Assembly: GCA_001873755.1 (NCBI GenBank)
Contig: MNZT01000052.1
Location: 1-53,596, forward strand
Origin: Candidatus Wirthbacteria bacterium CG2_30_54_11
Lineage (GTDB): Bacteria > Patescibacteriota > CG2-30-54-11
DNA length: 53,596 nt
Reading direction: 5' to 3'
Both the position numbers and the translations under genes were made by a program. Below the pieces are notes generated by a model that saw nothing but the letters and a program-made list of their open reading frames with translations, was not told where the DNA came from and searched no databases. Numbering within the stretch: the stretch's first letter is position 1; every line of letters starts with the position of its first letter. Shown here piece after piece: positions 4,968 through 41,733 of the stretch.

Positions 4968-5804
4968 ATGTACAATAAAAAAGCGCCTGCTTTAAACCAA
5001 TTATGCTGGATACCTATGTTCCTCCACCTCGTCGCTGATTATGGCAAAAACGACCTCGCCTTCAACGAAGTGATCACCCACCTGAAACTCAGCCATCCCC
5101 ATGTCGATGTCTTTCCTATCTCCGTACCCCCTTTTTCAACTATTGCCACGGGCTTCGTCATCGGGCAGCTGTCCCTGCAGGCTGCCGAAGGTATGGGCAT
5201 CTATGCCAATACCGCCCCCCGGAAGGATGAACGACAGGCCAGACTCAGGAATGCCGGCGAATCCTTTGTCTATGCCCGTCTGAAGAACGGCGTCCCTATC
5301 ATGGCCGTGAATTCCGGCTACAGTCTGTCCTTTGTCAAAAAAGAGATCGCCGCCCTGCACCGGGTAAAAATATCCAATGAAGGCTCCCAGTTCCGCTCCC
5401 GCGACAATTTTCCGGAACCGGTGATCAGCATCATGCGCGGCGAAGTGAACCATATCGGCGCTGCAGTCAACCCGGATACCATACCCGACCCTCCCGAAAA
5501 ATGTGTGGTCTGGATCGACGGCTACGGCAATATCAAAACCTCCATCCGCCTCTCGTCCATCAAGTATAAACCGGGGGACGCGGTGAAGATCACCCTGAAC
5601 ACCACGACGCACCAGGCCACCTTTGCTCCGGGGACATTCGAAGTACACGAGGGGGAACTGGCTTTTGCCCCGGGCTCTTCCGGCGGCGACGACCGGTTCA
5701 TGGAGCTGTTCCTGCGCGGCGGCAACGCGTACAAGGCATTCAATAAAGCTAGAGTGGGGCAGGAGATCGCGCATGAAAAATACATAAACGGTAAGAACGA
5801 ATAA
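4968..5804 (+). CDS. S-adenosyl-L-methionine hydroxide adenosyltransferase family (DUF62 / SAM hydrolase, chlorinase-fluorinase fold), divergent
   Basis: Family-like blocks LVADYGKNDLAFNEV (N-terminal DxG..D..), SQFRSRDNFPEPV (FhGRDiFAP-like), VVWIDGYGNIKTSI (iD.FGN..TN-like) and a C-terminal G.FEV..GEL..APGSSG. The real start may be the internal ATG at 5016 (MFLHLVADYG). Confidence 0.55.
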   Translation: MYNKKAPALNQLCWIPMFLHLVADYGKNDLAFNEVITHLKLSHPHVDVFPISVPPFSTIATGFVIGQLSLQAAEGMGIYANTAPRKDERQARLRNAGESFVYARLKNGVPIMAVNSGYSLSFVKKEIAALHRVKISNEGSQFRSRDNFPEPVISIMRGEVNHIGAAVNPDTIPDPPEKCVVWIDGYGNIKTSIRLSSIKYKPGDAVKITLNTTTHQATFAPGTFEVHEGELAFAPGSSGGDDRFMELFLRGGNAYKAFNKARVGQEIAHEKYINGKNE

Positions 5805-8265: not shown

Positions 8266-8307
8266 TTGACATAGCCATGTACTATGTATAACATAGTACA
8301 TGGCTAT
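8266..8307 (+). promoter_or_regulatory. TTGACA -35-like hexamer fused to a perfect 17-bp inverted repeat (candidate operator, possibly for the downstream PadR)
   Basis: TTGACA at 8266-8271. ATAGCCATGTACTATGT (8271-8287), ATA, ACATAGTACATGGCTAT (8291-8307) are perfect reverse complements and carry nested ATGT/ACAT half-sites. Confidence 0.5.
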
Positions 8308-8950
8308 ATACTTTATGGCGTTCCAAATGAATAAACTGTTTACTCACCGTCTCTACTTCCTGTTCGACCTCGCTTTGCTGACTTTTTTCGCCAGTCTGTA
8401 CAACACCCCGGTTTTTTCTTTCCAGCACTATGAGATCCGGCTCGTCTTGTACGGCGTCGGGTTGTGTTATCTGGCCTTCGTAGGTTCTCAGTCCTCACTG
8501 ACCAGGACACAGCTCGGACTGTCGACCTCCGGTACCCGCAGGGCGATCAAGGATATGGCCGTCCCCGGCGGGGCTCTCATCCTGGCGATCCTTTTGAGCC
8601 GCTGGCTCCGGCCGGAGTGGTTCCGACTCGGGATCTCCAATACCTGGTCCTCCATCCCGGTACGCCTCTTTACCTACGCCCTGTTCTCGGTACCCATGCA
8701 GGAGTTGGCCTTCCGCGGCTACGTCATATCCCGGCTCGAACAATTCACGATGCGTCCCGGCATCATCATCACGGCCTCGGCGCTCATTTTCAGCTTCATC
8801 CACTGGCCTTTCGGCAGTCTCATGATGTCAGCCGGCACATTTGTCCTGGGGATCGTTTTTGCCCGTAATTTTCTCCGTCACCGCGACCTCATCACGGTCA
8901 TGACCGCCCACTGGGTCATCGGCGCCGTGCTGCTGCTCTGCATGATCTAA
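8300..8950 (+). CDS. CPBP family intramembrane glutamic endopeptidase (CAAX protease/Abi family)
   Basis: Motifs QELAFRGY (EExxxR-type), FSFIHWP (FxxxH) and HWVIG. Multi-TM protein. The start is uncertain (8300, 8315 or 8327) because the 5' end overlaps the palindrome. Confidence 0.75.
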   Translation: MAIYFMAFQMNKLFTHRLYFLFDLALLTFFASLYNTPVFSFQHYEIRLVLYGVGLCYLAFVGSQSSLTRTQLGLSTSGTRRAIKDMAVPGGALILAILLSRWLRPEWFRLGISNTWSSIPVRLFTYALFSVPMQELAFRGYVISRLEQFTMRPGIIITASALIFSFIHWPFGSLMMSAGTFVLGIVFARNFLRHRDLITVMTAHWVIGAVLLLCMI

Positions 8951-8965
8951 ATACGAGGTGTGCAC

Positions 8966-9292
8966 ATGACCAATCCTGACGAAACCACCCAGTTCAAAAA
9001 AGGCCTCCTGGAACTGGCCGTACTGAAACTCGTGGCCCAAAAACCGCTCTACGGCTACGACATCATCACCCAGCTGGAAAAAGCGGGTCTCCCGGTCGTG
9101 CAGGGGACGCTCTATCCGCTCCTCACCCGCCTGCGAAAAGACGAACTCGTGTCGTACTCCTGGGAGGAATCCCCGAAAGGACCCCCGAGAAAATACTATG
9201 AGATCACCCCCAAAGGGCAGCAATACCTGGACTCCCAGGTCCTGGAGTGGCAGAAGATCCAGAAAAGCATGAATATACTGTTTCAATCCTAG
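8966..9292 (+). CDS. PadR family transcriptional regulator
   Basis: LELAVLKLVAQKPLYGYDIITQLEKAG...GTLYPLLTRLRKDELV...RKYYEITPKG is a typical PadR wHTH. GAGG RBS at 8955-8958, 7 nt before the ATG at 8966 (the track starts at GTG 8960). Confidence 0.85.
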   Translation: MTNPDETTQFKKGLLELAVLKLVAQKPLYGYDIITQLEKAGLPVVQGTLYPLLTRLRKDELVSYSWEESPKGPPRKYYEITPKGQQYLDSQVLEWQKIQKSMNILFQS

Positions 9293-9305: not shown

Positions 9306-11198
9306 ATGACCGAGCAGAATTTCGATGCCGCCTTTGCCGAGATGAGCCTGACCCGCGAAGCGCGCAAGGTACTGAACGACTACCTCAAACGACTGGAGAC
9401 TGAGACCGCCTCTCTGAAAAAAGAGGAGCGGGACGAACTGGTGCGCGATATCCAGGAGCACCTGTACAACGCACTGGAGGCAAAGCTGAAAAAGAGCCGG
9501 TCCAAAAAGGACACGCTCGATGCCCAGATCGTCATGGAAGTACTCTCCGCCCTGGGGGAACCGACCGACTATCTGGAGTCTGCGCAAACCGCGGAGGGGA
9601 TCAAAGGCAGTGCTCCGGTCCGACGGATCCGCCGTGCCCGCGAAGGACGCATATTCGGCGGGGTAGCCATGGGTATGGCCAATTATTTCCGCATCGACGT
9701 GGTCATCGTACGGGTCATCATGATCGGGCTCGTCCTGACCGGTATCTCCGCCATCATCTACCCCGTCCTCTGGCTCGTCATCCCGGAAGAGACCGAAGGT
9801 GAAGCCGCTGTCTCCTCGACCACGCCTGAACCGACCGCCAAAAGACCCCGCTGGGTGCGGGGACTGATCAAGCTGGGCTGGAAGCTCCTCCTGGTGTTCG
9901 TAGCGCTCTGCTTTTACCTGCCGGTGCTCGCCGTCCTTTTGGGCCTGACACTCTCCTTCTTTGCCATACCGCTGGCCTGGCTTTTCCACCCCTCCAACTT
10001 CTGGGGCTTCAATACACTCGCCCTCCTGGGCTACCTCCTGCCGATCGTCTCGGTCTGTCTGGGCGCCATCTTCCTGACCCTCTTGCTCCTGTTCCTCAAT
10101 TTCATCTACCGGGTGCACTTCAAACGGTCCCTGCTGCGGGGTAACTCTCTGAAATATCTGGGAGGCGCGTCTCTCATCGCGATCTGTCTGGTCATCCTCT
10201 CCTCGGCCTATACCCTGGCCGGCAACTGGAGTCGCGGTTCCATCACCGAGACCCGTGTATTCCCTGCCGGGCAGGCGCTCGATATCGAGATCGTAAGTGA
10301 AGTCATCGCCGGCGACATCACCGTCACCGGCAGTGACACCGTGGAAGAAATAACCCTTACCGAAACCCGTAAAGCCAGGGGGTATTCCATCGACAATGCC
10401 CGCCGCAACGCCGGCTCTATCTCAACCACGCCATCCATGGACGGGGACAAGCTCACGCTTGCGACCTCCACCTCGAACACCTGGGTCAATCACAATGCCA
10501 CGGTCGAATACCGCCTGCTGGTACCGAGCACCATGTCCCTCTCACTTCACAACCCTATCGGCCGCACGATCATCGAAGATATCGATGCCTCGACCATAAC
10601 CGTAGACAATGAGATAGGTTCGCTGGAGGTAAAAGACAGCTGGGCAGATCAAGCGGACTTCCGGAACAACATGGGGATGATCGAGATCTCCAGATTTGCT
10701 CCCCCGGCCCTGCTGCTGCCGCTTTCAAGTACCATGGAACAGCTGACCGATGATATCGAACCGCCCCGGCCCACAGCACCTCTGACCTTCTTCACCATCT
10801 CCAACAATCTAGGGGCTATTCGGCTCGAAGCGGTCACGACTGACAGCGCCGTCATCTCCGGGGATATGGGCAGCCTCGAGATCGATACCTGTTCGTTCCG
10901 CGGAAACATTTCGAACAACATGGGTTCCATCTCGATCAGCGACCACACCGGCGCTCTGTCCATCAGCAATTCCATGGGTGCGGTAGACGCCTCCTTCCTC
11001 GCCCTGTACGACGGTGAGGAATACAAAGTAGATTCCAGCATGGGAAGTGTGGTCCTCGACCTCCCTCCCGGTCTGGACCCGGTCTTCGACATCTCCAGTA
11101 ATTTCGGCAGTGTTGATAGAAAATACCGCACCCAGCTCGGTGGACCCAGACCTCACTTCACCATCACCTCGGATATGGGGTCGGTAGAGATCAGGTAA
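9306..11198 (+). CDS. PspC-domain membrane protein with N-terminal DUF1700/HAAS-like helix region and C-terminal DUF4097 (toastrack) beta-repeat domain
   Basis: REGRIFGGVAMGMANYFRIDVVIVRVIMIGLVLTGISAIIYPVLWLVIPEE is a PspC domain. It is followed by several TM helices. The C-terminus carries repeated G(S/A)(I/L)E(I/V)... strands (NNMGMIEIS, GDMGSLEID, NNMGSISIS, NSMGAVDAS, SSMGSVVLD). Confidence 0.8.
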   Translation: MTEQNFDAAFAEMSLTREARKVLNDYLKRLETETASLKKEERDELVRDIQEHLYNALEAKLKKSRSKKDTLDAQIVMEVLSALGEPTDYLESAQTAEGIKGSAPVRRIRRAREGRIFGGVAMGMANYFRIDVVIVRVIMIGLVLTGISAIIYPVLWLVIPEETEGEAAVSSTTPEPTAKRPRWVRGLIKLGWKLLLVFVALCFYLPVLAVLLGLTLSFFAIPLAWLFHPSNFWGFNTLALLGYLLPIVSVCLGAIFLTLLLLFLNFIYRVHFKRSLLRGNSLKYLGGASLIAICLVILSSAYTLAGNWSRGSITETRVFPAGQALDIEIVSEVIAGDITVTGSDTVEEITLTETRKARGYSIDNARRNAGSISTTPSMDGDKLTLATSTSNTWVNHNATVEYRLLVPSTMSLSLHNPIGRTIIEDIDASTITVDNEIGSLEVKDSWADQADFRNNMGMIEISRFAPPALLLPLSSTMEQLTDDIEPPRPTAPLTFFTISNNLGAIRLEAVTTDSAVISGDMGSLEIDTCSFRGNISNNMGSISISDHTGALSISNSMGAVDASFLALYDGEEYKVDSSMGSVVLDLPPGLDPVFDISSNFGSVDRKYRTQLGGPRPHFTITSDMGSVEIR

Positions 11199-12138
11199 GG
11201 GTCGACTGCACAGCCGGCGCGAACCGCGAAAAAGCACCTGCATAAACGGGTGCTTTTTCTGACGCTGCCACCGTTCCTTTGACTCTCGCCAGCTCCCTGA
11301 CGAAATTGACAAAGAACTGCCGGCCTGGTCTGATCCAGGTATTTAGCGGCAAGTCCCGCTGATGTGCGACATCCTGATAATAGTGCTCCGGTTCGTAGTC
11401 GAGCGGCACTTCTCTGATCTGATCGCGCAGCCACTCCCGGTCGAGCGTCGCTGCTCCATATTCGAAATGACCGAGATTGAACAGTTCCCGGCCGCTTCGG
11501 CTGGCGAATATTGAGGTTCCCAGCACCTGCCCTTCCAGTGCCCGCAAGGTCTCCTCTGAAGTGAACAGAGGTACCAGGTCGCCGGATGAAAACAACGGCT
11601 GCAGTTTCTCTTCTCTCAGATACGCATGCCGGCTCTGACAGAGCGTGATCTCGGCATCGATCCCATCCGTGAAGACAGACGAGACATCGACCGCCTTTTG
11701 CAGCGGATAGACGCCTGCGATCTTCCGGGGAAAACAGTTCTCCTTGGTCAGTCCATAGAAATGGTACGCCGCCGCCAGTGCCGCCCAGCCGATATGGACC
11801 GTGCAGGCAACATGCTGCCGGGTATAGTCCATGATGTCCGCAAGCTCTGCCCAGTAATCGACCGCTTCGAACGCAAGGTGCTCAAGCGGAGCTCCGGTGA
11901 CGATCAGTCCGTCCAGATCAGTCCCGGCTTCCCAAAAAGACCGATACCGGCTGTTCACATACGCCGTATCGGTATGCCGACCAGACGGCCGGTGCGTCTC
12001 GACCGTGAGCCAAGTGATCTCGATGGCATGACTTACGCTGGGCAGGATCCCGAGGAGCTCTGTTTCGGTCTGCCACGTATCGGGCATGAGGTTCAGGACT
12101 CCGAGACGAAGCGGGTAGGTCAAATGGGCGGTAGCCAT
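11191..12138 (-). CDS. metA: Homoserine O-acyltransferase (MetA/HTS) family protein; the nucleophilic Cys position appears substituted
   Basis: LGVLNLMP, DGLIVTGAPLE, VDYWAEL, GVYP and LGHFEY align with E. coli MetA blocks (LILNLMP, DGLIVTGAPLG, VAYWPQI, GVYEHH, TGHPEY). Start refined to the ATG at 12138 with RBS AGGAAAGGAAAAG (the track extends to 12201). The 3' end overlaps the convergent PspC gene by 8 nt. Confidence 0.75.
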   Translation of the reverse strand: MATAHLTYPLRLGVLNLMPDTWQTETELLGILPSVSHAIEITWLTVETHRPSGRHTDTAYVNSRYRSFWEAGTDLDGLIVTGAPLEHLAFEAVDYWAELADIMDYTRQHVACTVHIGWAALAAAYHFYGLTKENCFPRKIAGVYPLQKAVDVSSVFTDGIDAEITLCQSRHAYLREEKLQPLFSSGDLVPLFTSEETLRALEGQVLGTSIFASRSGRELFNLGHFEYGAATLDREWLRDQIREVPLDYEPEHYYQDVAHQRDLPLNTWIRPGRQFFVNFVRELARVKGTVAASEKAPVYAGAFSRFAPAVQSTLT

Positions 12139-12160
12139 GTCTTTTCCTTTCCTGATAAAT

Positions 12161-12187
12161 AAAAAACCCACCTCGGAGGGAGATGGG
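12161..12187 (-). terminator. Intrinsic terminator/attenuator 2, immediately upstream of the metA RBS
   Basis: Minus strand: CCCAUCUC (12187-12180), loop CCUCC, GAGGUGGG (12174-12167), then U6 (12166-12161). Confidence 0.6.
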
Positions 12188-12217
12188 TAGAGACAACACA
12201 CAGACCACTCCGTCCGC

Positions 12218-12283
12218 TCAGATACGCAGGTGCATCATGGGCATCATCATGAAACGGCAGGAGGAAGAGCCAGGGGACAGCAT
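12218..12283 (-). CDS. Candidate Met-rich leader peptide 2 (21 aa): MLSPGSSSCRFMMMPMMHLRI
   Basis: ATG 12283-12281 to TGA 12220-12218. Five AUG codons within six codons. Followed by terminator 2. Only a weak SD. Below the track's size cutoff. Confidence 0.45.
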   Translation of the reverse strand: MLSPGSSSCRFMMMPMMHLRI

Positions 12284-12306
12284 GGTCAATTCCGGAAATA
12301 AGAAAT

Positions 12307-12338
12307 AAAAAAACCCGCCTGCTGTGGTCAGAGGCGGG
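12307..12338 (-). terminator. Intrinsic terminator/attenuator 1
   Basis: Minus strand: CCCGCCU(CUG) (12338-), loop, (CAG)cAGGCGGG (to 12314), then U7 (12313-12307). Confidence 0.65.
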
Positions 12339-12361
12339 TTTCGTGTATCAGCGAAAACGGT

Positions 12362-12436
12362 CTACCTCCGACCATGCCAAACCATATCCATCATCATGGA
12401 CATCATCAGGCGGACGGCGGCAGAGGTACGGATCAT
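12362..12436 (-). CDS. Candidate Met-rich leader peptide 1 (24 aa): MIRTSAAVRLMMSMMMDMVWHGRR
   Basis: ATG 12436-12434 to TAG 12364-12362. Six AUG codons within eight codons. Partial SD (GGTG) 6 nt upstream. Followed by terminator 1. Confidence 0.45.
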   Translation of the reverse strand: MIRTSAAVRLMMSMMMDMVWHGRR

Positions 12437-12465
12437 GAGTGGCACCGATTGAAGTAACTACCTAT

Positions 12466-12494
12466 ATTCTAAAGGGATACCGATTGATTGTCTA
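12466..12494 (-). promoter_or_regulatory. Sigma70-like promoter for the leader/metA transcript
   Basis: Minus strand: TAGACA (12494-12489), 17-nt spacer, TAGAAT (12471-12466). It overlaps the stop codon of the upstream ABC ATPase gene. Confidence 0.4.
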
Positions 12495-13185
12495 TACGCT
12501 CTTCTCTCATTGCCCCCTGCCCGTGATCAATGGTTAGTTTTCCGTCTCTCATCTCTGCCACCCTGCCTGCATACTGTTTCACATACTCCGAATGCGTGAT
12601 CATGATGATGGTCTGACCATTCTCATTGAGCTTTTTCAAAAGCTGCATGATCTCCTCGCCCGACTTGCTGTCGAGATTCCCGGTCGGCTCGTCGGCGAGA
12701 AGAATCCGGGGCTTGTTGATCAGGGCCCTGACGAGTGAGACTCGCTGCTGCTCGCCGCCGGAAAGCAGACTGGGTAAATGGTTGATACGGGACTCCAGTC
12801 CGACCTGCGAGAGGAGCTCTTTGACCTGAGCTCTGTTCTCGCGGGTCCGCTTCACGAGCGCCGCCTCCACGTTCTGCGAAGCGGTCAGGGTCGGGATGAG
12901 ATTGAAGTTCTGGAACACGAACCCAAGCATGGCCGAACGAAGCTTCGCCAACTTGCTGTCGCTCTGGCGGGTAATGTCTTTCCCGTCCATAATGATCTCG
13001 CCGGAGGTCGGTCTGTCCAGAGCGCCCAGCAACTGGAGCATCGTGCTCTTGCCCGACCCGGACGGCCCTATGATCGCCCAGAAGTCGCCCTCGTTCACGG
13101 TGAAACTGACATCGTTGACCGCCTTGATCGTCGTGGTTCCTTGTTTGAATGTCTTCAGCAGATGGCTGATCTCGATAAGTGCCAT
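12469..13185 (-). CDS. ABC transporter ATP-binding protein (MacB/LolD/FtsE-like)
   Basis: Walker A GPSGSGKST, signature LSGGEQQR, Walker B LLADEPTGNLD, H-loop ITH. RBS AAGGAC upstream. Confidence 0.9.
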   Translation of the reverse strand: MALIEISHLLKTFKQGTTTIKAVNDVSFTVNEGDFWAIIGPSGSGKSTMLQLLGALDRPTSGEIIMDGKDITRQSDSKLAKLRSAMLGFVFQNFNLIPTLTASQNVEAALVKRTRENRAQVKELLSQVGLESRINHLPSLLSGGEQQRVSLVRALINKPRILLADEPTGNLDSKSGEEIMQLLKKLNENGQTIIMITHSEYVKQYAGRVAEMRDGKLTIDHGQGAMREERIDNQSVSL

Positions 13186-13194
13186 GATCGTCCT

Positions 13195-15006
13195 TTATTC
13201 TAAATTACGTAATGCTTCCTGAGGACGCATCCGGGAGGCTTTCAGGGAGGCGAGCAGTCCGGCGAAAAGAGAGCCCACAATGGCGACCAGGGACCCGGTC
13301 ATCAGAGTGGCGAAGGCATACTTCACATTGAGCACTACGGTAGTCGTGACCTCGGTGGATGCAGTTTCGGTAGCCGCACCACCCGGGCCTCTGCCCATGA
13401 ATCGCCCGACCATACTGCCAAACGAGGAATTCAAAGACGCCACATCCGCGTTCAAGGTGATATTGGCATGATTGATACCATAAATAGCCAGCATGGACAG
13501 CCCGATCCCGGCAGCGGCACCCAGAATGCCAAGTACCAGATTTTCCATGAGGATCTGACGGACGATCTGAAAGTTGCTCCAGCCGAAGGCCTTCAGAGTG
13601 CCGATCTCGCGGACACGCTTGTTGACCGAGAGAATAGTAAGAAGGCTGACGATGACAAAGGCTGCGATGAGTACGATGAGGCTGATCACTCCGACGAACT
13701 TGTTCATGAGATTGGTGACGGAGGTCAGTGAACCGGACACCTGCTTGGCCGTATCGGCTGCCGACGTGACCGTAGCCCCGGTGAACAGTGACGTGAGAGA
13801 AGTCGTGCTGGCTTCAACATTGGCCGCGTCGGTGGATTTCACCAGAATGAGATTGACCCGGTCGGTCTTGCCGGCAAGCTCCTGAAGCAGAGAAAGCGGA
13901 ATATACACATCAGCCGTATTGGTATAGAGCTTGGGCTCAACGATACCAACGATAGTGAACACCCGACTGTTGACCGTGACCGTTCCCCCGACGACCAGAC
14001 TTTGTTTCTGGGCATACGACTGACTGATGATGGCTTCATCCGTGTACGTCGTGATCGTCACGATGGTCGGCTCGGCCGTCACCACCGCAGCATCAGCGGA
14101 TACCGTATCTGACTCTGTCGCAGTCGTTTCGTCAGTCGTTTCAGAGACCGACGCTGCACTCTCATCGGCAGAGGCTTCAGGCTCAACTGTCGTCACAGTC
14201 ACAGTCGGAGCACTGAAATAGTTGCCTTCAATGATCTGGTCGGGCAGGATCAATCCGATATCGGTCTTGGACGGATCCGCTCCGGCAATGGTATAGGAAG
14301 ATGTTTGTATATCGGTCGGAGGGATATCGACATTCTGGGTAATATCCTCTTCCGGCACCACATATTCCGAGGTCACTGTCCTGGAAGGTCTGGTGGCGGA
14401 CGTACCGGTAGAAAATTCTCCGAGAGGACCTCCTCTGCCGCCGGTCGCCGCCCTGTATGCTTCCATTGCGGCAATATCTGCATCAGAGAATTCTATGTCC
14501 TGGCTCATCTGGATCCGCTGACCCCCGATCCGGAAGGTCGCCGTGATGGTCGGTATCGTCCCTTCCTGATGGGTCACGCTCATGATGAGCCCGGTCGAAA
14601 AATCGGCCACGAGAGCCGGGTCCATCTTGTCAGCCTCACTGGTCAAGAACGTCAGATTGCCGCCGGCAGCGAACGTATCATTACTGAAGGGATCACCGGC
14701 CGCTCCCAGCGTGGAAAGATCGGTCATAATTCGATTGTCGGCGATCATTTCCTGCCGGGTCGCCTCATCCACCTGCTGCAGATTATCAACACTGACTGTC
14801 CGGGTCACGAGCATGTCAGTCCCGACATTAGCCAGAGGGTTCAGTACCTCCTCCTGGGAAGCCTGCAGACTGCTGGATACGGAAATGATGGAAATGATGA
14901 TGGCGCTCGCGATGGCAAGCCCGAGTGTGATGGTAATCGTCTTGCCCAGTCTCCTCGTGAGCTCGGCCTTCAGATAGCTGAGATAGAACATGTGCCCCCG
15001 GTCCAT
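13195..15006 (-). CDS. ABC transporter permease, FtsX/MacB family, with large extracytoplasmic domain and a low-complexity T/A/E/S-rich insert
   Basis: N-terminal TM (ITITLGLAIASAIIISIISV). C-terminal FtsX module KRVREIGTLKAFGWSNFQIVRQILMENLVLGILGAAAGIGLS. Insert TVTTVEPEASADESAASVSETTDETTATESDTVSADAAVV. The start may be the ATG at 14991. Confidence 0.85.
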   Translation of the reverse strand: MDRGHMFYLSYLKAELTRRLGKTITITLGLAIASAIIISIISVSSSLQASQEEVLNPLANVGTDMLVTRTVSVDNLQQVDEATRQEMIADNRIMTDLSTLGAAGDPFSNDTFAAGGNLTFLTSEADKMDPALVADFSTGLIMSVTHQEGTIPTITATFRIGGQRIQMSQDIEFSDADIAAMEAYRAATGGRGGPLGEFSTGTSATRPSRTVTSEYVVPEEDITQNVDIPPTDIQTSSYTIAGADPSKTDIGLILPDQIIEGNYFSAPTVTVTTVEPEASADESAASVSETTDETTATESDTVSADAAVVTAEPTIVTITTYTDEAIISQSYAQKQSLVVGGTVTVNSRVFTIVGIVEPKLYTNTADVYIPLSLLQELAGKTDRVNLILVKSTDAANVEASTTSLTSLFTGATVTSAADTAKQVSGSLTSVTNLMNKFVGVISLIVLIAAFVIVSLLTILSVNKRVREIGTLKAFGWSNFQIVRQILMENLVLGILGAAAGIGLSMLAIYGINHANITLNADVASLNSSFGSMVGRFMGRGPGGAATETASTEVTTTVVLNVKYAFATLMTGSLVAIVGSLFAGLLASLKASRMRPQEALRNLE

Positions 15007-21324: not shown

Positions 21325-21912
21325 ATGAAGTACGAAAAGAAGCCTGTTTCCAGCCTCCTCAGATCGGATCGGACCGTTTTCTCCTTTCAGGACATCTGCC
21401 TCTTGTGGGGAACAACGGATGCTGATGCGGCGATCGCGGCGGTGAATTATTATGTCCGCAAGGGAGAGCTCGTCCGCCTCCGGCGCGGTATCTATGCCAA
21501 GGACGGAAATTATGACCGCAGAGAGCTCGCCAGCAGGATCTGCACCCCGTCCTATGTCAGCTTTGAAACCGTACTTGTATCACATGGTATTAATTTCCAA
21601 TACTATGGGCAGATATTTGTTGCCTCCTACCTGTCCCGGGAGATCATCGTGAACGGTCAGGTCTATATCTACCGCCGGATCAAGGACAGTGTCCTGATCG
21701 AACCAGCAGGTATCATCACCCAGAGAGGCAGTTCGACCGCAACTCCGGAACGGGCGTTCCTCGATATGATATACCTGAACAAGGAATACCATTTTGATAA
21801 CCTGAGTCCGCTCGACTGGGACCGGGTGTTCGAACTGCTCCCCCTGTACGACAACCAGCGTATGGCCCGTACCGTGAACACATATTACTCTGATCATCAG
21901 GCATCCAAATGA
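21325..21912 (+). CDS. AbiEi-family antitoxin (type IV toxin-antitoxin system)
   Basis: Architecture and motifs (ELVRLRRGIYA, TPSYVSFETVL, ATPERAFLDMIY) are typical of AbiEi. The 4-nt overlap (ATGA) with the next gene gives the canonical abiEi-abiEii pairing. Confidence 0.8.
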   Translation: MKYEKKPVSSLLRSDRTVFSFQDICLLWGTTDADAAIAAVNYYVRKGELVRLRRGIYAKDGNYDRRELASRICTPSYVSFETVLVSHGINFQYYGQIFVASYLSREIIVNGQVYIYRRIKDSVLIEPAGIITQRGSSTATPERAFLDMIYLNKEYHFDNLSPLDWDRVFELLPLYDNQRMARTVNTYYSDHQASK

Positions 21913-22610
21913 CGATACCCGCTCTTAACCCTGCCCGACACAAGACCTTATTGCTGCAAATCCTCAAAGACATCTATTCCGATGCATCCATTGCCTCCGT
22001 GCTGGGATTCAAAGGCGGGACCGCAGCTTTCCTGTTCTATGGGCTGGACCGTTTTTCCGTGGACATCGATCTGGATCTTCTGGATGGATCAAAGGAGGAC
22101 GCTGTATTCAAACGGGTGGAACAGATCGCCAGACAATACGGGACGGTCAGGGAGGTATCGCGCAAACGGTATACACTGCTTATCATCCTGTCTTATGAAA
22201 CTGGTGCCACCCAGGTTAAAATTGAAATCAACCGCAGAACATTCGGTTCGCACTACCACATATTGACCTATCTCGGCATATCCATGCAGGTCATGGTGCA
22301 GGAGGACATGTTCGCCCACAAGCTGATGGCCATGCACGAACGAATCGGCAAGACCAGCCGCGATATCTATGATGTCTGGTTCTTCCTGCGGCATACATGG
22401 GACATCAACCGGGAGATCGTTGAACAGCGTGCGGGCATGCCGTTCACAGACCTTGTACAGCGTTGTGTCGGTCAACTGGAGACAATGGCTGACCGCTCCA
22501 TCCTGAGCGGACTGGGAGAACTCCTGACTCCCGGCCAGAAGACATGGACAAAAACCAGACTCAAAGGCGACACGATATTCCTGCTCAGAGCACTGGCGGG
22601 GGAGAAGTGA
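21909..22610 (+). CDS. Nucleotidyltransferase AbiEii/AbiGii toxin family (DUF1814)
   Basis: GFKGGTAAFLFYGLDRFSVDIDLDL is the family's signature nucleotidyltransferase motif. Confidence 0.85.
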   Translation: MTIPALNPARHKTLLLQILKDIYSDASIASVLGFKGGTAAFLFYGLDRFSVDIDLDLLDGSKEDAVFKRVEQIARQYGTVREVSRKRYTLLIILSYETGATQVKIEINRRTFGSHYHILTYLGISMQVMVQEDMFAHKLMAMHERIGKTSRDIYDVWFFLRHTWDINREIVEQRAGMPFTDLVQRCVGQLETMADRSILSGLGELLTPGQKTWTKTRLKGDTIFLLRALAGEK

Positions 22611-22657
22611 TTGCAGGATGGGTGGGTGGTCTTTTCTATGTTGTCGGACGCACCCGT

Positions 22658-24055
22658 TCACCACGTCCCACAACGAGATATATCGAATACTTCTATTTCC
22701 CGAACCGCATCCTCCACTGGCATACCAGTGGAAGAGTAGATGTTTCCCGCCAGTAAACCACTGGTGCCCATACAGACTTCTTCTCCGTCGCGGTATCCCC
22801 GGAGCCTGACCGACCAGCCGTCAGGGATATGGACCGCAGCGGCATCCCCCTTCGCCGGAACGGCTTCGGAGGATACTTCGACAGGATTTACGGTATACAC
22901 TCCAGGCTCACTGGTATGGAAGTCCGGCTTACCGTTGCAGGCGCCGGCCGCGGCGAACTGGTCCGCGACCGCATTGGGCGGGTCGGGATAGATGACCACT
23001 TCCGGCTTTTGGCTGTGCACGAATTTACGATCCCGGTTCAGGTATTCTTTCGTCCGCAGACAGGTCGAGCACCAGTTCATCTCGCTCACAGAGATCTTGC
23101 CGGTATCCCAGAGCACCTGCTCCACTGAGGCCACATGACCCGGGCAGCCCTGCACATCATAGACAAAAATATCGCCCTCCCTCGGACAGTCGTCTACCAG
23201 GAATCCATCCATAAACGCCCAGTAATCCCAGTTGCAGGCATTGCCATGGCCGGGGTGATCGGCCGCTGCCGCCCCGACCTCAGGCCGCATGTAGGCTGCC
23301 CACCAGGTGCAGTTGCCGTAGTCGCCGGTGAAATTCTCGCTGCAGGACCAGTAGGGCACCTCACGGTCAGAGAACTGACTGCAGCAGCTGTTCTGCGCGG
23401 TCTCACTGTAGTCGCAGACGGTCGCAGGATCCGGCTCAGGCCCTGAGTCCGTCGAAGGATGACAGGCCGGCTCGTCGTGCACCGCGAACTGCTCGGGCAG
23501 GGAAGTCACTGTGGACATGGGCCCGGGATAAAAGCGGATAAGCGCTTCTCGAAAATCAGTCTCGGAACCGGTCGCCCAGACCAGATAGTTCCGGTCTGCT
23601 CCTGCTATGTACGCAGAATACGACAGCGCTGTTTCGCAGTACTTCGTCACGATGGCCTCCTGTCCGCCGATCAGGGTGCGACCAGGCTCCACGAAGTCAA
23701 AATTATCGAACCAGGCGCTCTGGGTGGAGCGGATCCAGTCGATCAGAGATACGCTTCCGTCCCGTGGCAGGGCATAGATATTGATGGTGCTAGCAGGGCT
23801 CGTGAGCAACAGACGGGTCGTTTCTTCTTCGCTCCCGGGACGGAGCTTCCAGGTGTCAGGATAGTCGAGCACGAACCCTGCCCCTGTATAGCGAGTAAGT
23901 CCTGCTTCCAGCGGGATAGCGGAGAAGTCGGGCGCGGCGACCGGTTCTGCTTCGTCGACAGTGGCGACTTCGCGTTCTGGTCCGGTGGTGCGGAGAGGGA
24001 GCGCGGTCAGGGCAAGGGCGAGGAGGAAGAGGAGGAGGGGGAGTTTGCGAAGCAT
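22658..24055 (-). CDS. Secreted CHAP-domain peptidoglycan hydrolase with Cys-rich linker
   Basis: Signal peptide MLRKLPLLLFLLALALTALPL. CHAP Cys block GNCTWWAAYMRPEVG and His block GDIFVYDVQGCPGHVASVEQV. Confidence 0.75.
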   Translation of the reverse strand: MLRKLPLLLFLLALALTALPLRTTGPEREVATVDEAEPVAAPDFSAIPLEAGLTRYTGAGFVLDYPDTWKLRPGSEEETTRLLLTSPASTINIYALPRDGSVSLIDWIRSTQSAWFDNFDFVEPGRTLIGGQEAIVTKYCETALSYSAYIAGADRNYLVWATGSETDFREALIRFYPGPMSTVTSLPEQFAVHDEPACHPSTDSGPEPDPATVCDYSETAQNSCCSQFSDREVPYWSCSENFTGDYGNCTWWAAYMRPEVGAAAADHPGHGNACNWDYWAFMDGFLVDDCPREGDIFVYDVQGCPGHVASVEQVLWDTGKISVSEMNWCSTCLRTKEYLNRDRKFVHSQKPEVVIYPDPPNAVADQFAAAGACNGKPDFHTSEPGVYTVNPVEVSSEAVPAKGDAAAVHIPDGWSVRLRGYRDGEEVCMGTSGLLAGNIYSSTGMPVEDAVREIEVFDISRCGTW

Positions 24056-24216
24056 GGGAGAGGGGAACCATAGGATCAGACAAGCAGATCATAAACCTTT
24101 AATAGCAGGAAGGAAAAGGATTACCAGATCGCCTACGGCGTCATTTGCCGGGCAGAGAAGTAAAAGCCTATAATGACCACGAGGTCAAAGCATCCAATCA
24201 TCTTTGAGGATTTCAA

Positions 24217-26469
24217 ATGAGCGAGACTGTTTTCACCTAGGTAAACTACAATCTGGGCTCTCTGATTGAACGAATTGAGATCGGGGAAATCGGTCTCCCT
24301 GATATCCAGCGGCCATTTGTCTGGAAGGACGCCAAGGTCCGCGACCTGTTTGATTCAATGTACAAAGGTTTTCCCGTCGGATACCTGTTATTCTGGCAAA
24401 ATGCCTTTTCTGATGACGCCCGATCCATCGGGACCAATTCCAAACAAAAAACACCTCGACTCCTCATCGTGGATGGTCAGCAAAGGCTGACATCTCTATA
24501 CGCTGTCGTGAAAGGAATTCCCGTTGTACGCGAAAATTTCGAAAAAGAATTAATACATATTGCATTCAACCCGCTGCTTGATAAATTTGAAGTGGCAGAC
24601 GCGGCCATACGCCGAGATTCATCATTTATCCCCGACATTTCAATTCTTTGGAATCCCGACAAAAAAATAACGAGCATTATTCGTGAATACACCGCCAATC
24701 TAAAATCAACCAAAGAAGACATCACAGAGGCAGATGAAGCTCGGATTGAAGATTCCATCTTAAAACTGCAGGGATTGCATTGCTTTCCCTTTACAGCGCT
24801 TGAACTATCGGCAGCCATCACCGAGGAAGCAGTCGCGGATGTCTTTGTCCGAATCAACAGCAAAGGTACTCCGCTCAACCAGGCGGATTTCGTGTTGACC
24901 CTCATGTCTGTATTCTGGGATGAAGGACGCACGCAACTAGAATCATTCTGTAGAGCATCCCGTAAGCCGCCGGCCACAGGTCCTTCACCGTTCAATTATT
25001 TCATCAAACCTGATCCGGACCAGCTGCTCCGGGTTAGTGTCGGGGTTGGATTCAAAAGAGCGCGGCTCAAATATGTCTATTCACTCTTGCGTGGCAAAGA
25101 CCTGGAAACCGAACAGTTCAGTGATGCACGCAGGGACGAACAGTTCGCTATTCTAAAAGAAGCCCAGGAACGAACGATCAACCTTCTGTACTGGCAGGAT
25201 TTCATGAAGTGCATTACGCTCGCTGGATTTCGCTCAGAGAGCATGATCAGTTCCCATAACAGCCTGATTTTTTCCTATATCCTCTATCTCCTCGGGCGGA
25301 CAGAATACAAAGTCGAAGAATACCAGCTGAGACGCGTTATCGCTCGGTGGTTCTTCATGTCCAGCCTGACCGGCCGATTCACCGGATCCCCGGAATCAGC
25401 CATGGAATTTGATCTCGCCCGATTCCGCGAAATCCGGGACGCGCACGGCTTTCTCCACACGCTCGAACATGCATGTGATCTCGCGCTCACTGACAGCTAT
25501 TGGAAAATCACTCTGCCCAATGATCTTGCCACATCTTCACCACGAAGCCCCTCACTGTTTGCCTACAACGCCGCTTTGGTTTTACTTGACGCGCCAGCTT
25601 TATTTTCTCGATTAAAAGTATCTGAACTACTTGATCCTGTAGCTCAAGGAGTACGTGGGGCAGTAGAAAGGCATCATCTGTTTCCCAAGGGGTATCTCGC
25701 TACTCTCAGGATCACTGACCTCAGAGAAACCAATCAGATCGCGAACTACGCTCTCGTCGAATGGGGTGACAATGGTGATATCGAGGATCAACCTCCCTCT
25801 GAATATTTAACCCCTCTCCTCAACCGGTTCAACGAAACAGACCGTCAACGCATGTGCCACCTCCATGCCCTTCCCCAGGGATGGGAGCAGATGGAGTATC
25901 AGCAATTTCTGGAAGCACGGCGTGAACTAATTGCCCAGGTCGTATCCGAAGGATACCGAACCCTCATGACGGATCATGACGCGGCGTACACCGCCCAGCC
26001 ACTCTCCCTTCAGGATATGGTCGCACTCGGAGAATCAAGCGCTGTGGAATTCAAGTCCACTCTACGGATAAATCTACATACCAAAGAGGTGGATCCACGC
26101 ATGGAACTGGCGGTACTGAAGACTATCGCCGGCTTTCTGAACACCAACGGCGGCACCCTGACCATCGGCGTGACCGATGACGGGCAGGCAGTCGGTATCG
26201 AAACTGATAGATTTGATAATGAAGACAAGATGAGCCTCCACCTGGTCAACCTCATCCGGAATCATATGGGACCCGTGGTCACGCCCAATATCCATATCAG
26301 GTTCGAGGAATACGAGGAAAATCGGGTGCTTATGGCGGTATGTGCCAAATCCAAAGCACCAGTGTATGTGAAGGATGGAACGGTTGAACGGTTCTATATC
26401 CGCACCGGGCCATCCACCACGGAGCTAACTGCGAGCCAGATACAGGAATATATCAAACAGAGGTTCTAG
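24217..26469 (+). pseudogene. DUF262 (ParB/Srx-like, GmrSD/COG1479-type) plus HNH-like nuclease plus C-terminal AlbA_2 (Schlafen-like) fusion; in-frame TAG at codon 8
   Basis: RBS GAGGA then the ATG at 24217 gives MSETVFT, then TAG (24238-24240), then in-frame VNYNLGSLIERIEIGEIGLPDIQRPFVWKD...IVDGQQRLTSL (DUF262). ERHHLFPKGYL...NQIANYALVEWGDN is the HNH-like block. ESSAVEFKS...LKTIAGFLNTNGGTLTIGVTDDG is AlbA_2. The track ORF begins only at the internal ATG 24358. Confidence 0.7.
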
Positions 26470-26529
26470 TCGGGATCAGTACGGTCCAAGATAATTAGAC
26501 AGATAGGGGGTAGTGGTTCTGGTTGATGA

Positions 26530-26590
26530 CCGTGAATTTATACTATATTTCATTAAAATTCACGGCAAATTGAGTTTTTACCGTGAATTT
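26530..26590 (+). promoter_or_regulatory. Three copies of a CCGTGAATTT element (inverted pair plus direct copy) upstream of fic
   Basis: CCGTGAATTT at 26530-26539, AAATTCACGG at 26556-26565 and CCGTGAATTT at 26581-26590. They sit in an AT-rich spacer 40 nt before the fic ATG. Confidence 0.5.
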
Positions 26591-26630
26591 GCTACACTTC
26601 GCCTAGGCAATTATTTCAAGGGAGGACGCT

Positions 26631-27512
26631 ATGGCGATCAACCAGAAAATGAAACAGAGAATAGATACCCTGAAAAAAGAATATGATTCCCTGAAAACAG
26701 GCAAGGAGTCATTGCTGGCTATGATTATGGAGACCGAGGTCCCAGAAGCGGTCTATAACTCCAACGCGATCGAAAATTCCACCCTCACCATCGCAGAGAC
26801 GGAAAAAATCCTCATGGAGATGAAGGTATCCCGCCATATCTCCGTGCGGGAAGTATTTGAAGCCAAAAACCTCGCCCGGATATCTGACTATTTGATGAAG
26901 AAAACAACCTCGTTCTCGCTGGACAGAGAACTGATCCTCCTGCTCCACTCCATGCTCATATCCAATATCGACGACACCATCGCCGGCAGATTCCGCCAGC
27001 GGGATGAATATGTCCGGGTCGGCATGCACATCGCTCCGGCCCCGGAGCATATCGAATCCATGATGGAATCGCTGCTGCTCGAGTATTCCGGAAATCACAG
27101 TTCATACTTCCTGGACAGGATCGCTCTGTTTCACCTGGGTTTCGAGCATATTCACCCGTTCTGCGACGGCAATGGCCGTATCGGCCGGGTGCTGATCAAC
27201 TGCCAGCTTTCTCAACAGGGATTCCCCCCCGTCATCATCCGGGACAAGGAAAAACAACTCTACTACGCTGCTTTTCGGGAATTCAAAGACAAAAAGAAAA
27301 CGGTGGTCATGGAAAGAGTGCTGATACTCGCGCTCCTGGAATCATTCCATAAAAGGCTTGCCTATCTGAAAGGCAACGCCATCATCACGATTACCGAATA
27401 CGCCGTACAACAGGAAATTCGGCCGCAGATACTTCTCAACAAAGCAAAGCGTCAGACCATACCGGCATTCCGGGAAAAAGGTATCTGGAAGATCGGAATC
27501 GATCAGGGATAA
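26631..27512 (+). CDS. Fic family protein (AMPylase-type) with N-terminal inhibitory helix and C-terminal HTH-like tail
   Basis: Fic motif HPFCDGNGRIGR. Class II-type inhibitory motif SNAIEN ((S/T)xxxE(G/N)). RBS GGGAGGA. Confidence 0.85.
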   Translation: MAINQKMKQRIDTLKKEYDSLKTGKESLLAMIMETEVPEAVYNSNAIENSTLTIAETEKILMEMKVSRHISVREVFEAKNLARISDYLMKKTTSFSLDRELILLLHSMLISNIDDTIAGRFRQRDEYVRVGMHIAPAPEHIESMMESLLLEYSGNHSSYFLDRIALFHLGFEHIHPFCDGNGRIGRVLINCQLSQQGFPPVIIRDKEKQLYYAAFREFKDKKKTVVMERVLILALLESFHKRLAYLKGNAIITITEYAVQQEIRPQILLNKAKRQTIPAFREKGIWKIGIDQG

Positions 27513-39719: not shown

Positions 39720-39850
39720 GCGAACGGTCGACAAGATACCTTGTAATGCAGGGTTTTCCTTTGTATACTGTTCTCGTTCGATAAAATCATACCAAAACAC
39801 AGCCCCTGCCTGTGTTTTTTGTGTACTTACAGCCATTTAGGAGGTGCCAG

Positions 39851-41032: not shown

Positions 41033-41109
41033 TTTGTCAGCCCTGACACAAAAGAGTTTAATAGACACGGGCGCCCGTCGCGCCCGTGTTTTTGATACGG
41101 GGAGGATCC

Positions 41110-41625
41110 ATGAACGACCAGTTTTCTGCCTGGATAGACAGCTACGCCTATCAGCTGCTTGCCCGCCGCGACTATGCGGTAAAAGAGCTGCGGGAAAAGA
41201 TCATCCGGGCCGCAGAAAAAAAGTTCGAAGCGCTGGACGAAGCTCACGAGGACGAGGTTCGGCAACTAATCGAGACGCTCGAGCAGCGCGGGCACCTCGA
41301 CGAAGACCGCTTCATCCGCGCCTGGATAGCGAACCGCATTGCCTATAAACCCAGAAGCCGGTATATGCTTCTTCAGGAACTGCGCCTGCACGGAGCAGAC
41401 CTGGACCTGGCCGAAAGGATCCTAAAAGAAGAGGTCCCCCCGGCAGTGGAAAAGAAGATGGCTGCCTCCTTGGCCGGGAAGAAAGGGCGAACCCAGAAAG
41501 ACCCCCAAAAAATCATAGCCTATCTTTCTTCCAAAGGATTTTCCTACGAAACCATACGAAGCGTTTTAGGAAACCAGGACAGCGAAAAGGCCAGACAAAA
41601 ATCCCCCTTGGTCCCCCTTTCCTAA
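41110..41625 (+). CDS. recX: Recombination regulator RecX
   Basis: Position directly after recA. YAYQLLARRDYAVKELREKI, DEDRFIRAWI and KIIAYLSSKGFSYETI are RecX-type three-helix repeats. GGAGGAT RBS and the ATG at 41110. Confidence 0.8.
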   Translation: MNDQFSAWIDSYAYQLLARRDYAVKELREKIIRAAEKKFEALDEAHEDEVRQLIETLEQRGHLDEDRFIRAWIANRIAYKPRSRYMLLQELRLHGADLDLAERILKEEVPPAVEKKMAASLAGKKGRTQKDPQKIIAYLSSKGFSYETIRSVLGNQDSEKARQKSPLVPLS

Positions 41626-41733
41626 AGGGGGAAAATGCCATCAAGGATAAACAAGGCCAATTAAGATTTTTCGCTCTCAAGAGGCTTGCAGATGAACCCG
41701 TTTTTGTGTAGGATACATGAGCCTAATCGTATG

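Follow-up and report, generated by a model that had tools for sequence, protein, structure and literature searches.

Can a ribosome that stalls on AUG codons report the supply of methionine, when the same codon starts every reading frame? Leader-peptide attenuation has been described for the Trp, His, Phe, Leu, Thr and Ile/Val pathways, with looser forms for Cys and Pro, and Met pathways are known to be governed by SAM riboswitches, T-boxes and protein regulators. The role of AUG as start codon is plausibly one reason why Met attenuators are missing from this list. The question is raised by a 330-nt intergenic leader that lies 5' of a metA-family gene, on the minus strand, in an uncultivated groundwater bacterium of a deep-branching lineage. 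A sequence-only reading of this DNA had proposed a duplicated Met attenuator here and had stated that it knew of none described; our search of the full-text literature, with subscription-only papers outside its coverage, likewise found no description of a Met leader-peptide attenuator. We argue below that the metA leader probably consists of two ribosome-mediated transcription attenuators in series, both tuned to Met by runs of AUG codons. Throughout, the window is the whole stretch of DNA analysed (53,596 nucleotides).

On the minus strand, genes for an FtsX/MacB permease and an ABC ATPase come first, followed by the leader and then by the metA-family gene. The gene downstream of the leader and the predicted promoter are as follows.

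11191-12138, minus strand: metA-family homoserine O-acyltransferase, 315 aa, PF04204 (HTS/MetA, E 2.2e-60), with its ATG at 12138.
12466-12494, minus strand: predicted sigma-70-like promoter, TAGACA-17 nt-TAGAAT, 10/12 consensus matches.

Homologues of the product retrieved by protein search carry the names homoserine O-succinyltransferase or O-acetyltransferase, and MetA catalyses the first committed step of Met synthesis. Contigs of three further assemblies, made from different samples, carry the leader at 100% identity (four assemblies in all). They encode the same protein and hold the sole other copies of the leader found, which is therefore no assembly artefact.

Two short open reading frames occupy this leader, each with a run of Met codons.

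12362-12436, minus strand: leader ORF1, 24 codons plus stop, encoding MIRTSAAVRLMMSMMMDMVWHGRR; 7/24 codons are ATG; alternative in-frame GTG start at 12445.
12383-12406, minus strand: Met-codon run of unit 1, ATGATGTCCATGATGATGGATATG, read as ATG ATG TCC ATG ATG ATG GAT ATG; 6 ATG in 8 codons, the densest in the window.
12218-12283, minus strand: leader ORF2, 21 codons plus stop, encoding MLSPGSSSCRFMMMPMMHLRI; 6/21 codons are ATG; alternative in-frame TTG start at 12289.
12233-12250, minus strand: Met-codon run of unit 2, ATG ATG ATG CCC ATG ATG; 5 ATG in 6 codons.

Both frames, with their runs, lie exactly where the sequence-only reading had placed them. In each, an ATG start stands about 10 codons ahead of the run and the stop codon follows 3-5 codons past it. 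Collinear and identical in the order of their elements, the two units start 153 nt from each other, and the peptides, 21-24 residues long, have little in common beyond the Met run. The run of unit 1 also makes an 8-bp apical hairpin (12403-12396 with 12391-12384).

Are such runs to be expected by chance? The AUG runs are highly non-random: five ATG in six in-frame codons, observed twice in the leader, were reached once in 20,000 dinucleotide-preserving shuffles of the 330-nt region. In all six frames of the 53.6-kb window the two leader runs are the two densest AUG runs. Only five clusters of at least four ATG in eight codons occur there; the two strongest are the leader runs, and the remaining three are antisense to coding genes. 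Similarly, among short ORFs of the window with a run of the same residue, just three are followed within 110 nt by a hairpin below -13 kcal/mol and a T-run, and of these ORF1 and ORF2 alone lie between genes and have a run that reaches 5 in 6 or more. One of the three antisense clusters, the ATG run at 14876-14917, is the reverse complement of an Ile/Ser-rich membrane segment of the permease, IIISIIS.

Each of the two frames is followed by a terminator, as the sequence-only reading had described (a hairpin and U7 after ORF1, a hairpin and U6 after ORF2).

12305-12343, minus strand: terminator 1, hairpin 12341-12329 with 12324-12311 (core 12338-12314), U7 (12313-12307) and AUUU; -19.6 kcal/mol.
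12161-12188, minus strand: terminator 2, 9-bp hairpin 12188-12180 with 12174-12166, loop CCUCC, U6 (12166-12161) and AUUUAU; -13.7 kcal/mol; matched by the terminator scan.

Both are canonical and oriented toward metA, with U-tracts on the minus strand only. The T-run of terminator 2 stops 22 nt short of the metA ATG, and an SD-like sequence for metA, AGGAAAGGAAAAG, lies 3' of this terminator at 12153-12141.

The leader could be no more than the sum of ordinary features: two intrinsic terminators and in-frame low complexity of the (ATG)n type, with ORFs that are untranslated and a metA gene that is regulated in some other way or not at all. ATG repeats are frequent as metagenome microsatellites, and there is no conservation to examine. 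Yet the two interrupted runs are independent, they lie on one strand in ORFs that begin with ATG and are similar in size, each is followed by a terminator, and the pair stands directly 5' of a Met biosynthesis gene. Nor is there an ordinary explanation for two full terminators within one 5' leader that are separated by no gene. The rarity of even one such run among the shuffles and the lack of anything comparable at other metA-homologue loci (see below) also speak against this account, which we consider unlikely, even allowing for the leader ORFs without SD and the antiterminator energies discussed further on.

It could also be asked whether the ORFs are small genes in their own right, specifying Met-rich peptides that, for instance, bind Cu(I) or act as antioxidants and have nothing to do with the control of metA, since each has an ATG start and is then followed by a terminator of its own. 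We hold this to be very unlikely: ORF2 lacks its own promoter, both ORFs are without an SD, homologues were not found, the products would have just 21-24 residues with little shared beyond the Met run, and the one route apparent for transcription of metA would be closed by two terminators.

What route is that? The promoter predicted by the sequence-only reading ahead of unit 1 is indeed present; it is the best promoter-like site in 11000-13500 and the single one that precedes both units. Its -10 hexamer overlaps the stop codon of the ABC ATPase gene (12471-12469), and its position would put the transcription start near 12459. Our promoter scan found no other minus-strand promoter-like site between it and metA. 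Since there is none between terminator 1 and metA, transcription of metA must cross unit 1. This bears on a simpler account, in which only unit 2 attenuates metA, the first hairpin with its U7 is the intrinsic terminator of the ABC operon, and ORF1, a copy that is incidental or in decay, regulates nothing. The ABC operon does need terminator 1, because there is no other terminator between the ABC ATPase stop (12469) and that hairpin, and the predicted promoter is a consensus match only. It is possible that terminator 1 serves the ABC operon and attenuation alike. Against a passive unit 1 stand, besides the obligatory passage of metA transcription, the denser AUG run of ORF1 (6/8), its better four-segment geometry and its antiterminator, the more convincing of the two (-20.1 kcal/mol, 19/2000 shuffles, a 22 kcal/mol barrier; see below). 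A role for unit 2 alone thus seems rather unlikely to us.

The strand itself may be questioned. On the plus strand, 12374-12457 encodes MPNHIHHHGHHQ... and 12230-12301 encodes (V)HHGHHHET..., both with 5 His in 6 codons, so that the locus might be read as a pair of His-type leaders. These His runs are automatic, because ATG is the reverse complement of CAT. Neither hairpin has a plus-strand U-tract, both ORFs extend into the convergent ABC ATPase gene at its 3' end, the next plus-strand ORF of at least 150 aa outside the minus-strand genes begins at 17167, and none of the window ORFs scanned was identified as a His-related gene. We rejected this reading, extremely improbable in our judgement, as one of His-rich frames with neither a terminator nor a downstream gene. 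Two further plus-strand ORFs, one of 41 aa from the gene-caller (12183-12308) and one at 12324-12452, are nondescript.

The translation signals of the leader ORFs are inconspicuous. The sequence-only reading had warned of weak Shine-Dalgarno sequences; neither leader ORF in fact has one, and the warning is a minor one, as most genes in the 53.6-kb window have none either. Since the genome is SD-poor, the absence of SDs from the leader does not disqualify the ORFs.

If the two units are attenuators, each should contain a strand near the leader stop codon that can choose between alternative partners. The segments proposed are listed here.

12409-12435, minus strand: unit 1, segment 1, pairing with segment 2 (12378-12344) in a 1:2 anti-antiterminator hairpin that encloses the Met run.
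12352-12378, minus strand: unit 1, segment 2, the antiterminator 5' strand, made of the last leader codons, the stop TAG (12364-12362) and 10 nt beyond; pairs with 12343-12325.
12275-12287, minus strand: unit 2, segment 1, including the start codon of leader 2; pairs with 12215-12203 (1:2 hairpin).
12203-12216, minus strand: unit 2, segment 2, the antiterminator 5' strand, 2-15 nt past the stop TGA (12220-12218); pairs with 12186-12175.

Segment 3 of unit 1 is formed by the 5' arm and loop of terminator 1 (12343-12325). The pairing GGUCGGAGG:CCUCUGACC that had been suggested for unit 1 exists, with a duplex energy of -15.1 kcal/mol. Its counterpart in unit 2, CGGACGGAG:CUCCCUCCG, exists as well (-10.6 kcal/mol), but RNAfold favours a shifted register, 12215-12205 with 12186-12175, which invades more of the 5' arm of the terminator.

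We modelled the position of the ribosome by masking, and folded the RNA downstream of it as it would stand before the 3' arm of the terminator is made. In unit 1, the 1:2 hairpin has -36.4 kcal/mol (for 12436->12342), and the core of its segment 1 is covered once the ribosomal A site stands at 12406-12397. The antiterminator of this unit has -20.1 kcal/mol in all states with the ribosome on the Met run and 0 with the ribosome on the stop codon. In unit 2 the corresponding values are -11.3 to -15.6 and -1.8 kcal/mol. The geometry that the masking logic of the sequence-only reading calls for is thus predicted in both units: with the ribosome on the AUG run, the segment beside the stop codon pairs with the 5' arm of the terminator, and with the ribosome on the stop this segment is masked. 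The comparison of antiterminator and terminator energies called for there gives structures of comparable stability, -20.1 against -19.6 kcal/mol in unit 1 and -11.3 against -13.7 kcal/mol in unit 2. Refolding into the terminator would have to overcome a barrier of about 22.5 kcal/mol in unit 1 and of 12-15 kcal/mol in unit 2, according to rough findpath estimates. When a ribosome stalls on the Met run of unit 2, segment 1 of this unit is upstream of its footprint and outside it; with segment 1 behind the footprint, unit 2 is a poorer match to the classical model than unit 1.

How unusual are these pairings? The whole leader folds better than its shuffles (z = -3.7). The antiterminator energy was equalled by 411/2000 shuffles for unit 1 and by 972/2000 for unit 2; when equal pairing to the terminator arm is asked for in addition to the energy, the counts become 19/2000 (about 1%) and 109/2000 (about 5%). 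The antiterminator of unit 1 is thus only moderately unusual, and that of unit 2 is no better than shuffles, a result that counts in favour of the ordinary features discussed above, as both energies alone fall within the shuffle range. The equilibrium (MFE) fold contains the terminator wherever the ribosome is placed, so that equilibrium folding was dropped as a discriminator; because the terminator wins in every state, the attenuator model needs kinetic control. The in-silico checks that were run among those suggested with the tandem Met attenuator agree with it, and the proposal is supported in part: in its favour are its anatomy, the non-randomness of its AUG codons and its pairings; on the other side are antiterminator energies in the range of shuffles, a terminator that prevails at equilibrium and the lack of the element in the nearest MetA relatives (see below).

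We infer that the leader ORFs are translated, that ribosomes stall in them under Met limitation and that the alternative structures compete kinetically. Two such attenuators in series could work in the following way. Transcription would start near 12459 at the TAGACA/TAGAAT promoter, and polymerases that read through from the ABC operon may reach the leader as well. A ribosome would translate ORF1 while RNA polymerase approaches terminator 1. With ample charged elongator Met-tRNA, this ribosome would reach the stop codon and cover segment 2 (12378-12352), leaving segments 3 and 4 to pair, and terminator 1 would end transcription at U7. With scarce Met-tRNA, the ribosome would stall on the 6/8 AUG run and disrupt the 1:2 hairpin; the freed segment 2 would pair with the 5' arm of the terminator before the 3' arm is made, and the polymerase would read through. 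Surviving transcripts would face the same test at unit 2, with ORF2, its 5/6 AUG run and terminator 2. Expression of metA would then be roughly the product of two read-through probabilities, so that basal expression would be low and would rise steeply as Met becomes limiting. Without any translation, 1:2 and 3:4 would both form and the default would be off.

One difficulty is peculiar to Met. Since AUG is also the start codon, Met starvation touches initiation and elongation together: Met limitation should also cut initiator fMet-tRNA, reduce translation of the leader and push it toward the off state, which counts against the model. A Met attenuator could work all the same because the demand for elongator tRNA(Met) far exceeds that for the initiator, an argument that has its basis in the theory of selective tRNA charging.

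Could the same leader act without translation? In such a regulatory RNA, a protein or the anticodon (CAU) of tRNA(Met) would bind the AUG repeats, or both terminators would be controlled by an aptamer, as yet undescribed, for SAM or Met. The significant structure of the leader (the z of -3.7) is compatible with this, and SAM riboswitches and T-boxes do occur in metA leaders elsewhere: our covariance-model search finds SAM-I in locus L005, SAM-I/IV in L029 and a T-box in L027, upstream of metA homologues. The same search found neither SAM riboswitches (SAM-I, II, III, IV, V, VI) nor a T-box in 12000-12650, even at E up to 10. No Rfam family matches the leader at its gathering threshold, the best scores below it being those of Trp_leader (15.9 bits, threshold 41) and Thr_leader (13.7, threshold 55); the leader is outside every curated Rfam leader family. 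An RNA of this kind would not require the in-frame layout of the ORFs, nor a stop codon adjoining the antiterminator strand, and a conserved aptamer-like core is not definable from a single sequence. We regard it as quite unlikely.

Relatives of the gene are distant. A search of 5.8 billion proteins gave nearest MetA relatives at 39-43% identity, and a MetA search of genome contigs gave 33 loci with homologues at only 30-37% identity. No Met-run ORF was found upstream of the closest relatives (L037-L041) or at the 33 more distant loci, and none comparable to those of the leader precedes the MetA homologues at the 36 other loci considered. A pattern scan of metagenome contigs for ATGATGATGNNNATGATG hit at least 120 loci; among the matches listed, most are (ATG)n microsatellites, probably eukaryotic, and none has a short ORF followed by a terminator.

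How does the metA leader compare with known attenuators? In the classical systems (trpL, hisL, leuL, thrL, pheL and ilvL/ivbL of E. coli and Salmonella; Rfam Trp_leader, His_leader, Leu_leader and Thr_leader), we find the same leader ORF rich in codons for the end product, the same intrinsic terminator just 5' of the first biosynthetic gene and, as predicted for the metA leader by folding, the same four segments with 1:2, 2:3 and 3:4 pairing and an antiterminator strand at the leader stop, and the same off state by default when there is no translation. The metA leader differs from them in its codon, AUG, which would make the sensed amino acid one that is also needed for initiation; in its lack of sequence or covariance-model similarity to the Rfam leader families; in having two complete units in series; and in its host, a deep-branching uncultivated lineage with little SD use. 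Taken together, these traits may make it the first example of a Met-sensing leader-peptide attenuator, with two same-signal units in series giving a multiplicative, steep response, in a lineage that makes little use of SDs; the balance tips slightly in favour of this wider claim.

Two short ORFs in one leader have a precedent. The leader of Salmonella mgtCBR contains mgtM and mgtP, each thought to govern alternative stem-loops and hence transcription of the coding region (PMC3641672). The metA leader is similar in carrying two short ORFs over one long leader, but its units have the codon run in common and each ends in a canonical intrinsic terminator, so that it looks like a duplicated series for one signal. 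The two mgtCBR ORFs reportedly answer different signals (ATP; charged tRNA-Pro or proline), and are said not to rely on canonical hairpin and U-tract terminators.

SAM riboswitches (S-box, SAM-I/IV) and Met T-boxes occupy the same position in metA leaders and likewise involve premature intrinsic termination relieved when the product is scarce. Their sensor is a SAM aptamer or an RNA that reads uncharged tRNA, whereas that of the present leader would be a translating ribosome. Arranging T-boxes or riboswitches in tandem is a known means of sharpening a response. Polycysteine leaderless sORF attenuators are found in mycobacteria. More broadly, Cys-rich short ORFs occur upstream of cysteine genes in Actinobacteria and mycobacteria, often with no obvious terminator (PMC1262725). 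These share with the metA leader a sulfur-amino-acid pathway, an upstream ORF rich in cognate codons and non-canonical initiation signals, but they sense Cys, whereas the metA units have strong terminators and would sense Met.

If the tandem attenuator is real, stalling on elongator AUG codons can report Met supply despite the need for Met in initiation. The effects of Met on initiation and on elongation would then be separable, and the question could be tested with a self-contained element of 330 nt. Like tandem riboswitches and T-boxes, a same-signal tandem would be a natural case of multiplicative attenuation, and it may provide a compact Met-responsive part for synthetic biology. It would also mean that the divergent, orphan-looking PF04204 gene really belongs to Met metabolism.

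As to the host, the DnaA encoded in this DNA shares only 50-60% identity with those of MAGs labelled WWE3, Chloroflexota or Limnocylindria, and synteny with the closest contig extends over dnaA-dnaN-recF and the type IV secretion-like genes.

On the minus strand, a 330-nt non-coding stretch between an ABC ATPase gene and metA holds two collinear units, whose starts lie 153 nt apart and whose elements follow in identical order. Each has a short ORF with a run of AUG codons (6 of 8 codons in ORF1, 5 of 6 in ORF2), then a hairpin and a U-tract. The best available reading, self-consistent and in our judgement moderately probable, is a Met-sensing tandem leader-peptide attenuator, a model built on a single sequence and on assumptions about kinetics. 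The sequence-only reading had proposed such a device; its coordinates are all correct, and its ORFs, AUG runs, hairpins with U-tracts and promoter-like site are all present as described:

13195-15006, minus: FtsX/MacB-type permease
12469-13185, minus: ABC ATPase
12494-12466, minus: promoter-like TAGACA-17-TAGAAT (score 10/12)
12436->12362, minus: ORF1, peptide MIRTSAAVRLMMSMMMDMVWHGRR, then stop
12341-12311, minus: hairpin 1, then U7
12283->12218, minus: ORF2, peptide MLSPGSSSCRFMMMPMMHLRI, then stop
12188-12166, minus: hairpin 2, then U6
Between U6 and the metA ATG, minus: 22 nt with the Shine-Dalgarno-like AGGAAAGGA
Start at 12138, minus: metA, 315 aa, homoserine O-succinyl/acetyltransferase (MetA; PF04204, E 2.2e-60)

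The promoter-like site scores highest in a scan of 11000-13500 and is the sole minus-strand promoter candidate ahead of metA. The scan found none between the units, so unit 2 should meet only transcripts escaping unit 1; metA output would approximate the product of two read-through probabilities. Were ORF1 and ORF2 genes for small Met-rich peptides, metA would be deprived of a transcription route. Terminator 1 probably doubles as the end of the ABC operon, but this does not account for ORF1, whose run and antiterminator are the better of the two. Read on the plus strand, the region offers His-rich ORFs that automatically mirror the ATG runs, and terminators and a downstream gene are absent. 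Downstream, metA converges with the plus-strand gene of a 630-aa HAAS/PspC/DUF4097 protein (9306-11198); their 3' ends share 8 nt (11191-11198), which leaves no terminator between them. Immediately upstream of this PspC-like gene come a PadR regulator (8960-9292) and an Rce1-like CPBP protease (8300-8950).

Could the AUG runs have arisen by chance? When the window (53.6 kb) was scanned in six frames for clusters with 4 or more ATG in 8 codons, five came up, the strongest two being the leader ORFs (6/8, and 5/8, which is 5/6). The remaining three fall opposite coding genes, on the antisense strand; of these, 14876-14917 was checked and is complementary to a membrane segment rich in Ile/Ser. Five ATG in six in-frame codons appeared in 1 of 20,000 dinucleotide-preserving shuffles of the 330-nt region, and there once, whereas the real region has it twice on one strand, each time within an ATG-started ORF. 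This test is conservative, since the shuffles retain the AT and TG excess made by the runs. When short ORFs (8-45 codons) with a same-residue run were surveyed throughout the window, only three had a hairpin below -13 kcal/mol and a T-run within 110 nt downstream, and of these ORF1 and ORF2 alone were also intergenic with a run reaching at least 5 in 6. The whole leader is more stably folded than its own shuffles (z = -3.7), and no comparable AUG run was found upstream of MetA homologues at 36 loci. Pure chance is hard to reconcile with these results. Three further assemblies, made from other samples, carry the identical leader sequence, which thus is not an assembly artefact.

The sequence-only reading also proposed a switch in pairing, and this stands in part: at equilibrium each unit folds into its terminator in all states, with or without a ribosome mask. 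In classical attenuators the terminator likewise wins at equilibrium, and the decision is kinetic. We therefore folded only the RNA 3' of a 30-nt ribosome footprint, with the terminator 3' arm not yet transcribed. With the ribosome on the Met codons, an antiterminator forms in unit 1 (12374-12352 with 12343-12325; -20.1 kcal/mol at five of the six Met positions, -12.4 at the last) and in unit 2 (12215-12205 with 12186-12175; -11.3 to -15.6 kcal/mol). With the ribosome on the stop codon it is lost, unit 1 having no structure (0.0) and unit 2 -1.8 kcal/mol. The terminators reach -19.6 and -13.7 kcal/mol, and Findpath barriers from antiterminator to terminator are about 22.5 kcal/mol in unit 1 and 12-15 kcal/mol in unit 2, so high that an antiterminator formed first would outlast polymerase passage over the U-tract.

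The antiterminator energies are ordinary, being matched by 411 of 2000 shuffles of the upstream sequence in unit 1 and 972 of 2000 in unit 2; energy together with equal pairing to the terminator arm is reached by about 1% and about 5%, respectively. Chance readily yields pairing between G-rich sequence and a C-rich arm. A 1:2 (anti-antiterminator) hairpin encloses the Met run in unit 1 (12435-12409 with 12378-12344, -36.4 kcal/mol), and its unit 2 counterpart includes the start codon (12287-12275 with 12215-12203). Both units are thus predicted to follow the complete four-segment logic of trp-type attenuation. Segment 1 of unit 2 lies behind the footprint of the stalled ribosome, which makes unit 2 the poorer match to the classical model.

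Like the trp, his, leu, thr and phe leader-peptide attenuators, the metA leader would be off without translation, when 1:2 and 3:4 (the terminator) form, and off when segment 2 is covered by a ribosome at the stop codon and 3:4 can form; a ribosome that stalls on the AUG run would permit 2:3 (the antiterminator) and turn metA on. Charging of the initiator tRNA should likewise drop when Met is limiting. In selective tRNA charging theory, demand for elongator tRNA(Met) is several-fold above that for the initiator, so failure would be expected in elongation first. The sequence-only reading warned of weak Shine-Dalgarno sequences; the leader ORFs in fact have none, a trait shared with most predicted genes of the window (34 ORF start regions, up to 30 nt upstream of the start), so the organism evidently initiates without one.

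Rfam gives no support for a riboswitch or T-box that works without translation. The leader belongs to none of the curated leader families (Trp_leader 15.9 bits versus a threshold of 41, Thr_leader 13.7 versus 55). In other lineages SAM-I (locus L005), SAM-I/IV (L029) and T-box (L027) elements occupy the equivalent position upstream of metA homologues. Tandem attenuators in Salmonella mgtCBR reportedly sense two different signals, whereas the metA leader would be a same-signal tandem. The mgtCBR leader is a precedent for tandem short-ORF attenuators (PMC3641672). In a comparative survey of Actinobacteria, Met operons yielded no RNA element; the survey lists Met as under riboswitch control elsewhere (PMC1262725). 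The sequence-only reading knew of no described Met leader-peptide attenuator, and none was found in the full-text literature, an absence of evidence only, as subscription papers are poorly covered there. We lean towards regarding the element as a leader-peptide attenuator with a new amino-acid specificity, Met, and a same-signal tandem layout. The candidate is small and self-contained.

MetA itself is divergent, with 30-37% identity only in a search of genome contigs and 39-43% to its nearest relatives in a large protein search, upstream of which no Met-run ORF was found. Among other metA-homologue loci, one in a Treponema sp. MAG (L004) alone has a weak in-frame ATG enrichment (ATGGTATGCATGCCTATG, 3 ATG in 6 codons), about 117 nt upstream of the gene. 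Matches listed by a metagenome pattern scan were mostly ATG microsatellites. DnaA, 50-60% identical to MAGs labelled WWE3, Chloroflexota or Limnocylindria, places the organism, whose source includes a groundwater metagenome, far from anything named. Pfam matches are lacking for many window ORFs of 170-340 aa; together with the few Shine-Dalgarnos and with DnaA identities of at most 60% to any database protein, this points to a lineage that has been poorly sampled and whose translation-initiation signals are unusual.

About 6 kb from metA, a 278-aa protein (4968-5804, plus) matches the SAM hydroxide adenosyltransferase C-terminal domain (PF20257, E 1e-6), from a SAM-cleaving enzyme family; the N-terminal domain was not detected in it. 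Positions 39812-45736 and 46044-53515 form the chromosomal origin neighbourhood (recA, dnaA, dnaN, recF), adjoined by type IV secretion-like genes. The order dnaA-dnaN-recF-Big_5-large protein-TraG-TraC-PrgI recurs on the contig that encodes the closest relative of DnaA (54% identity). Defence or toxin-type genes cluster at 21325-27512.

46044-47102: Big_5 protein
47119-50910: CHAP-domain protein, 1263 aa
50932-52764: TraG/VirB4-like ATPase
52778-53515: TraC-like gene
21325-22610: AbiEi/AbiEii pair
24358-26469: GmrSD_N and Schlafen/AlbA_2 fusion, 703 aa
26631-27512: Fic/DOC protein
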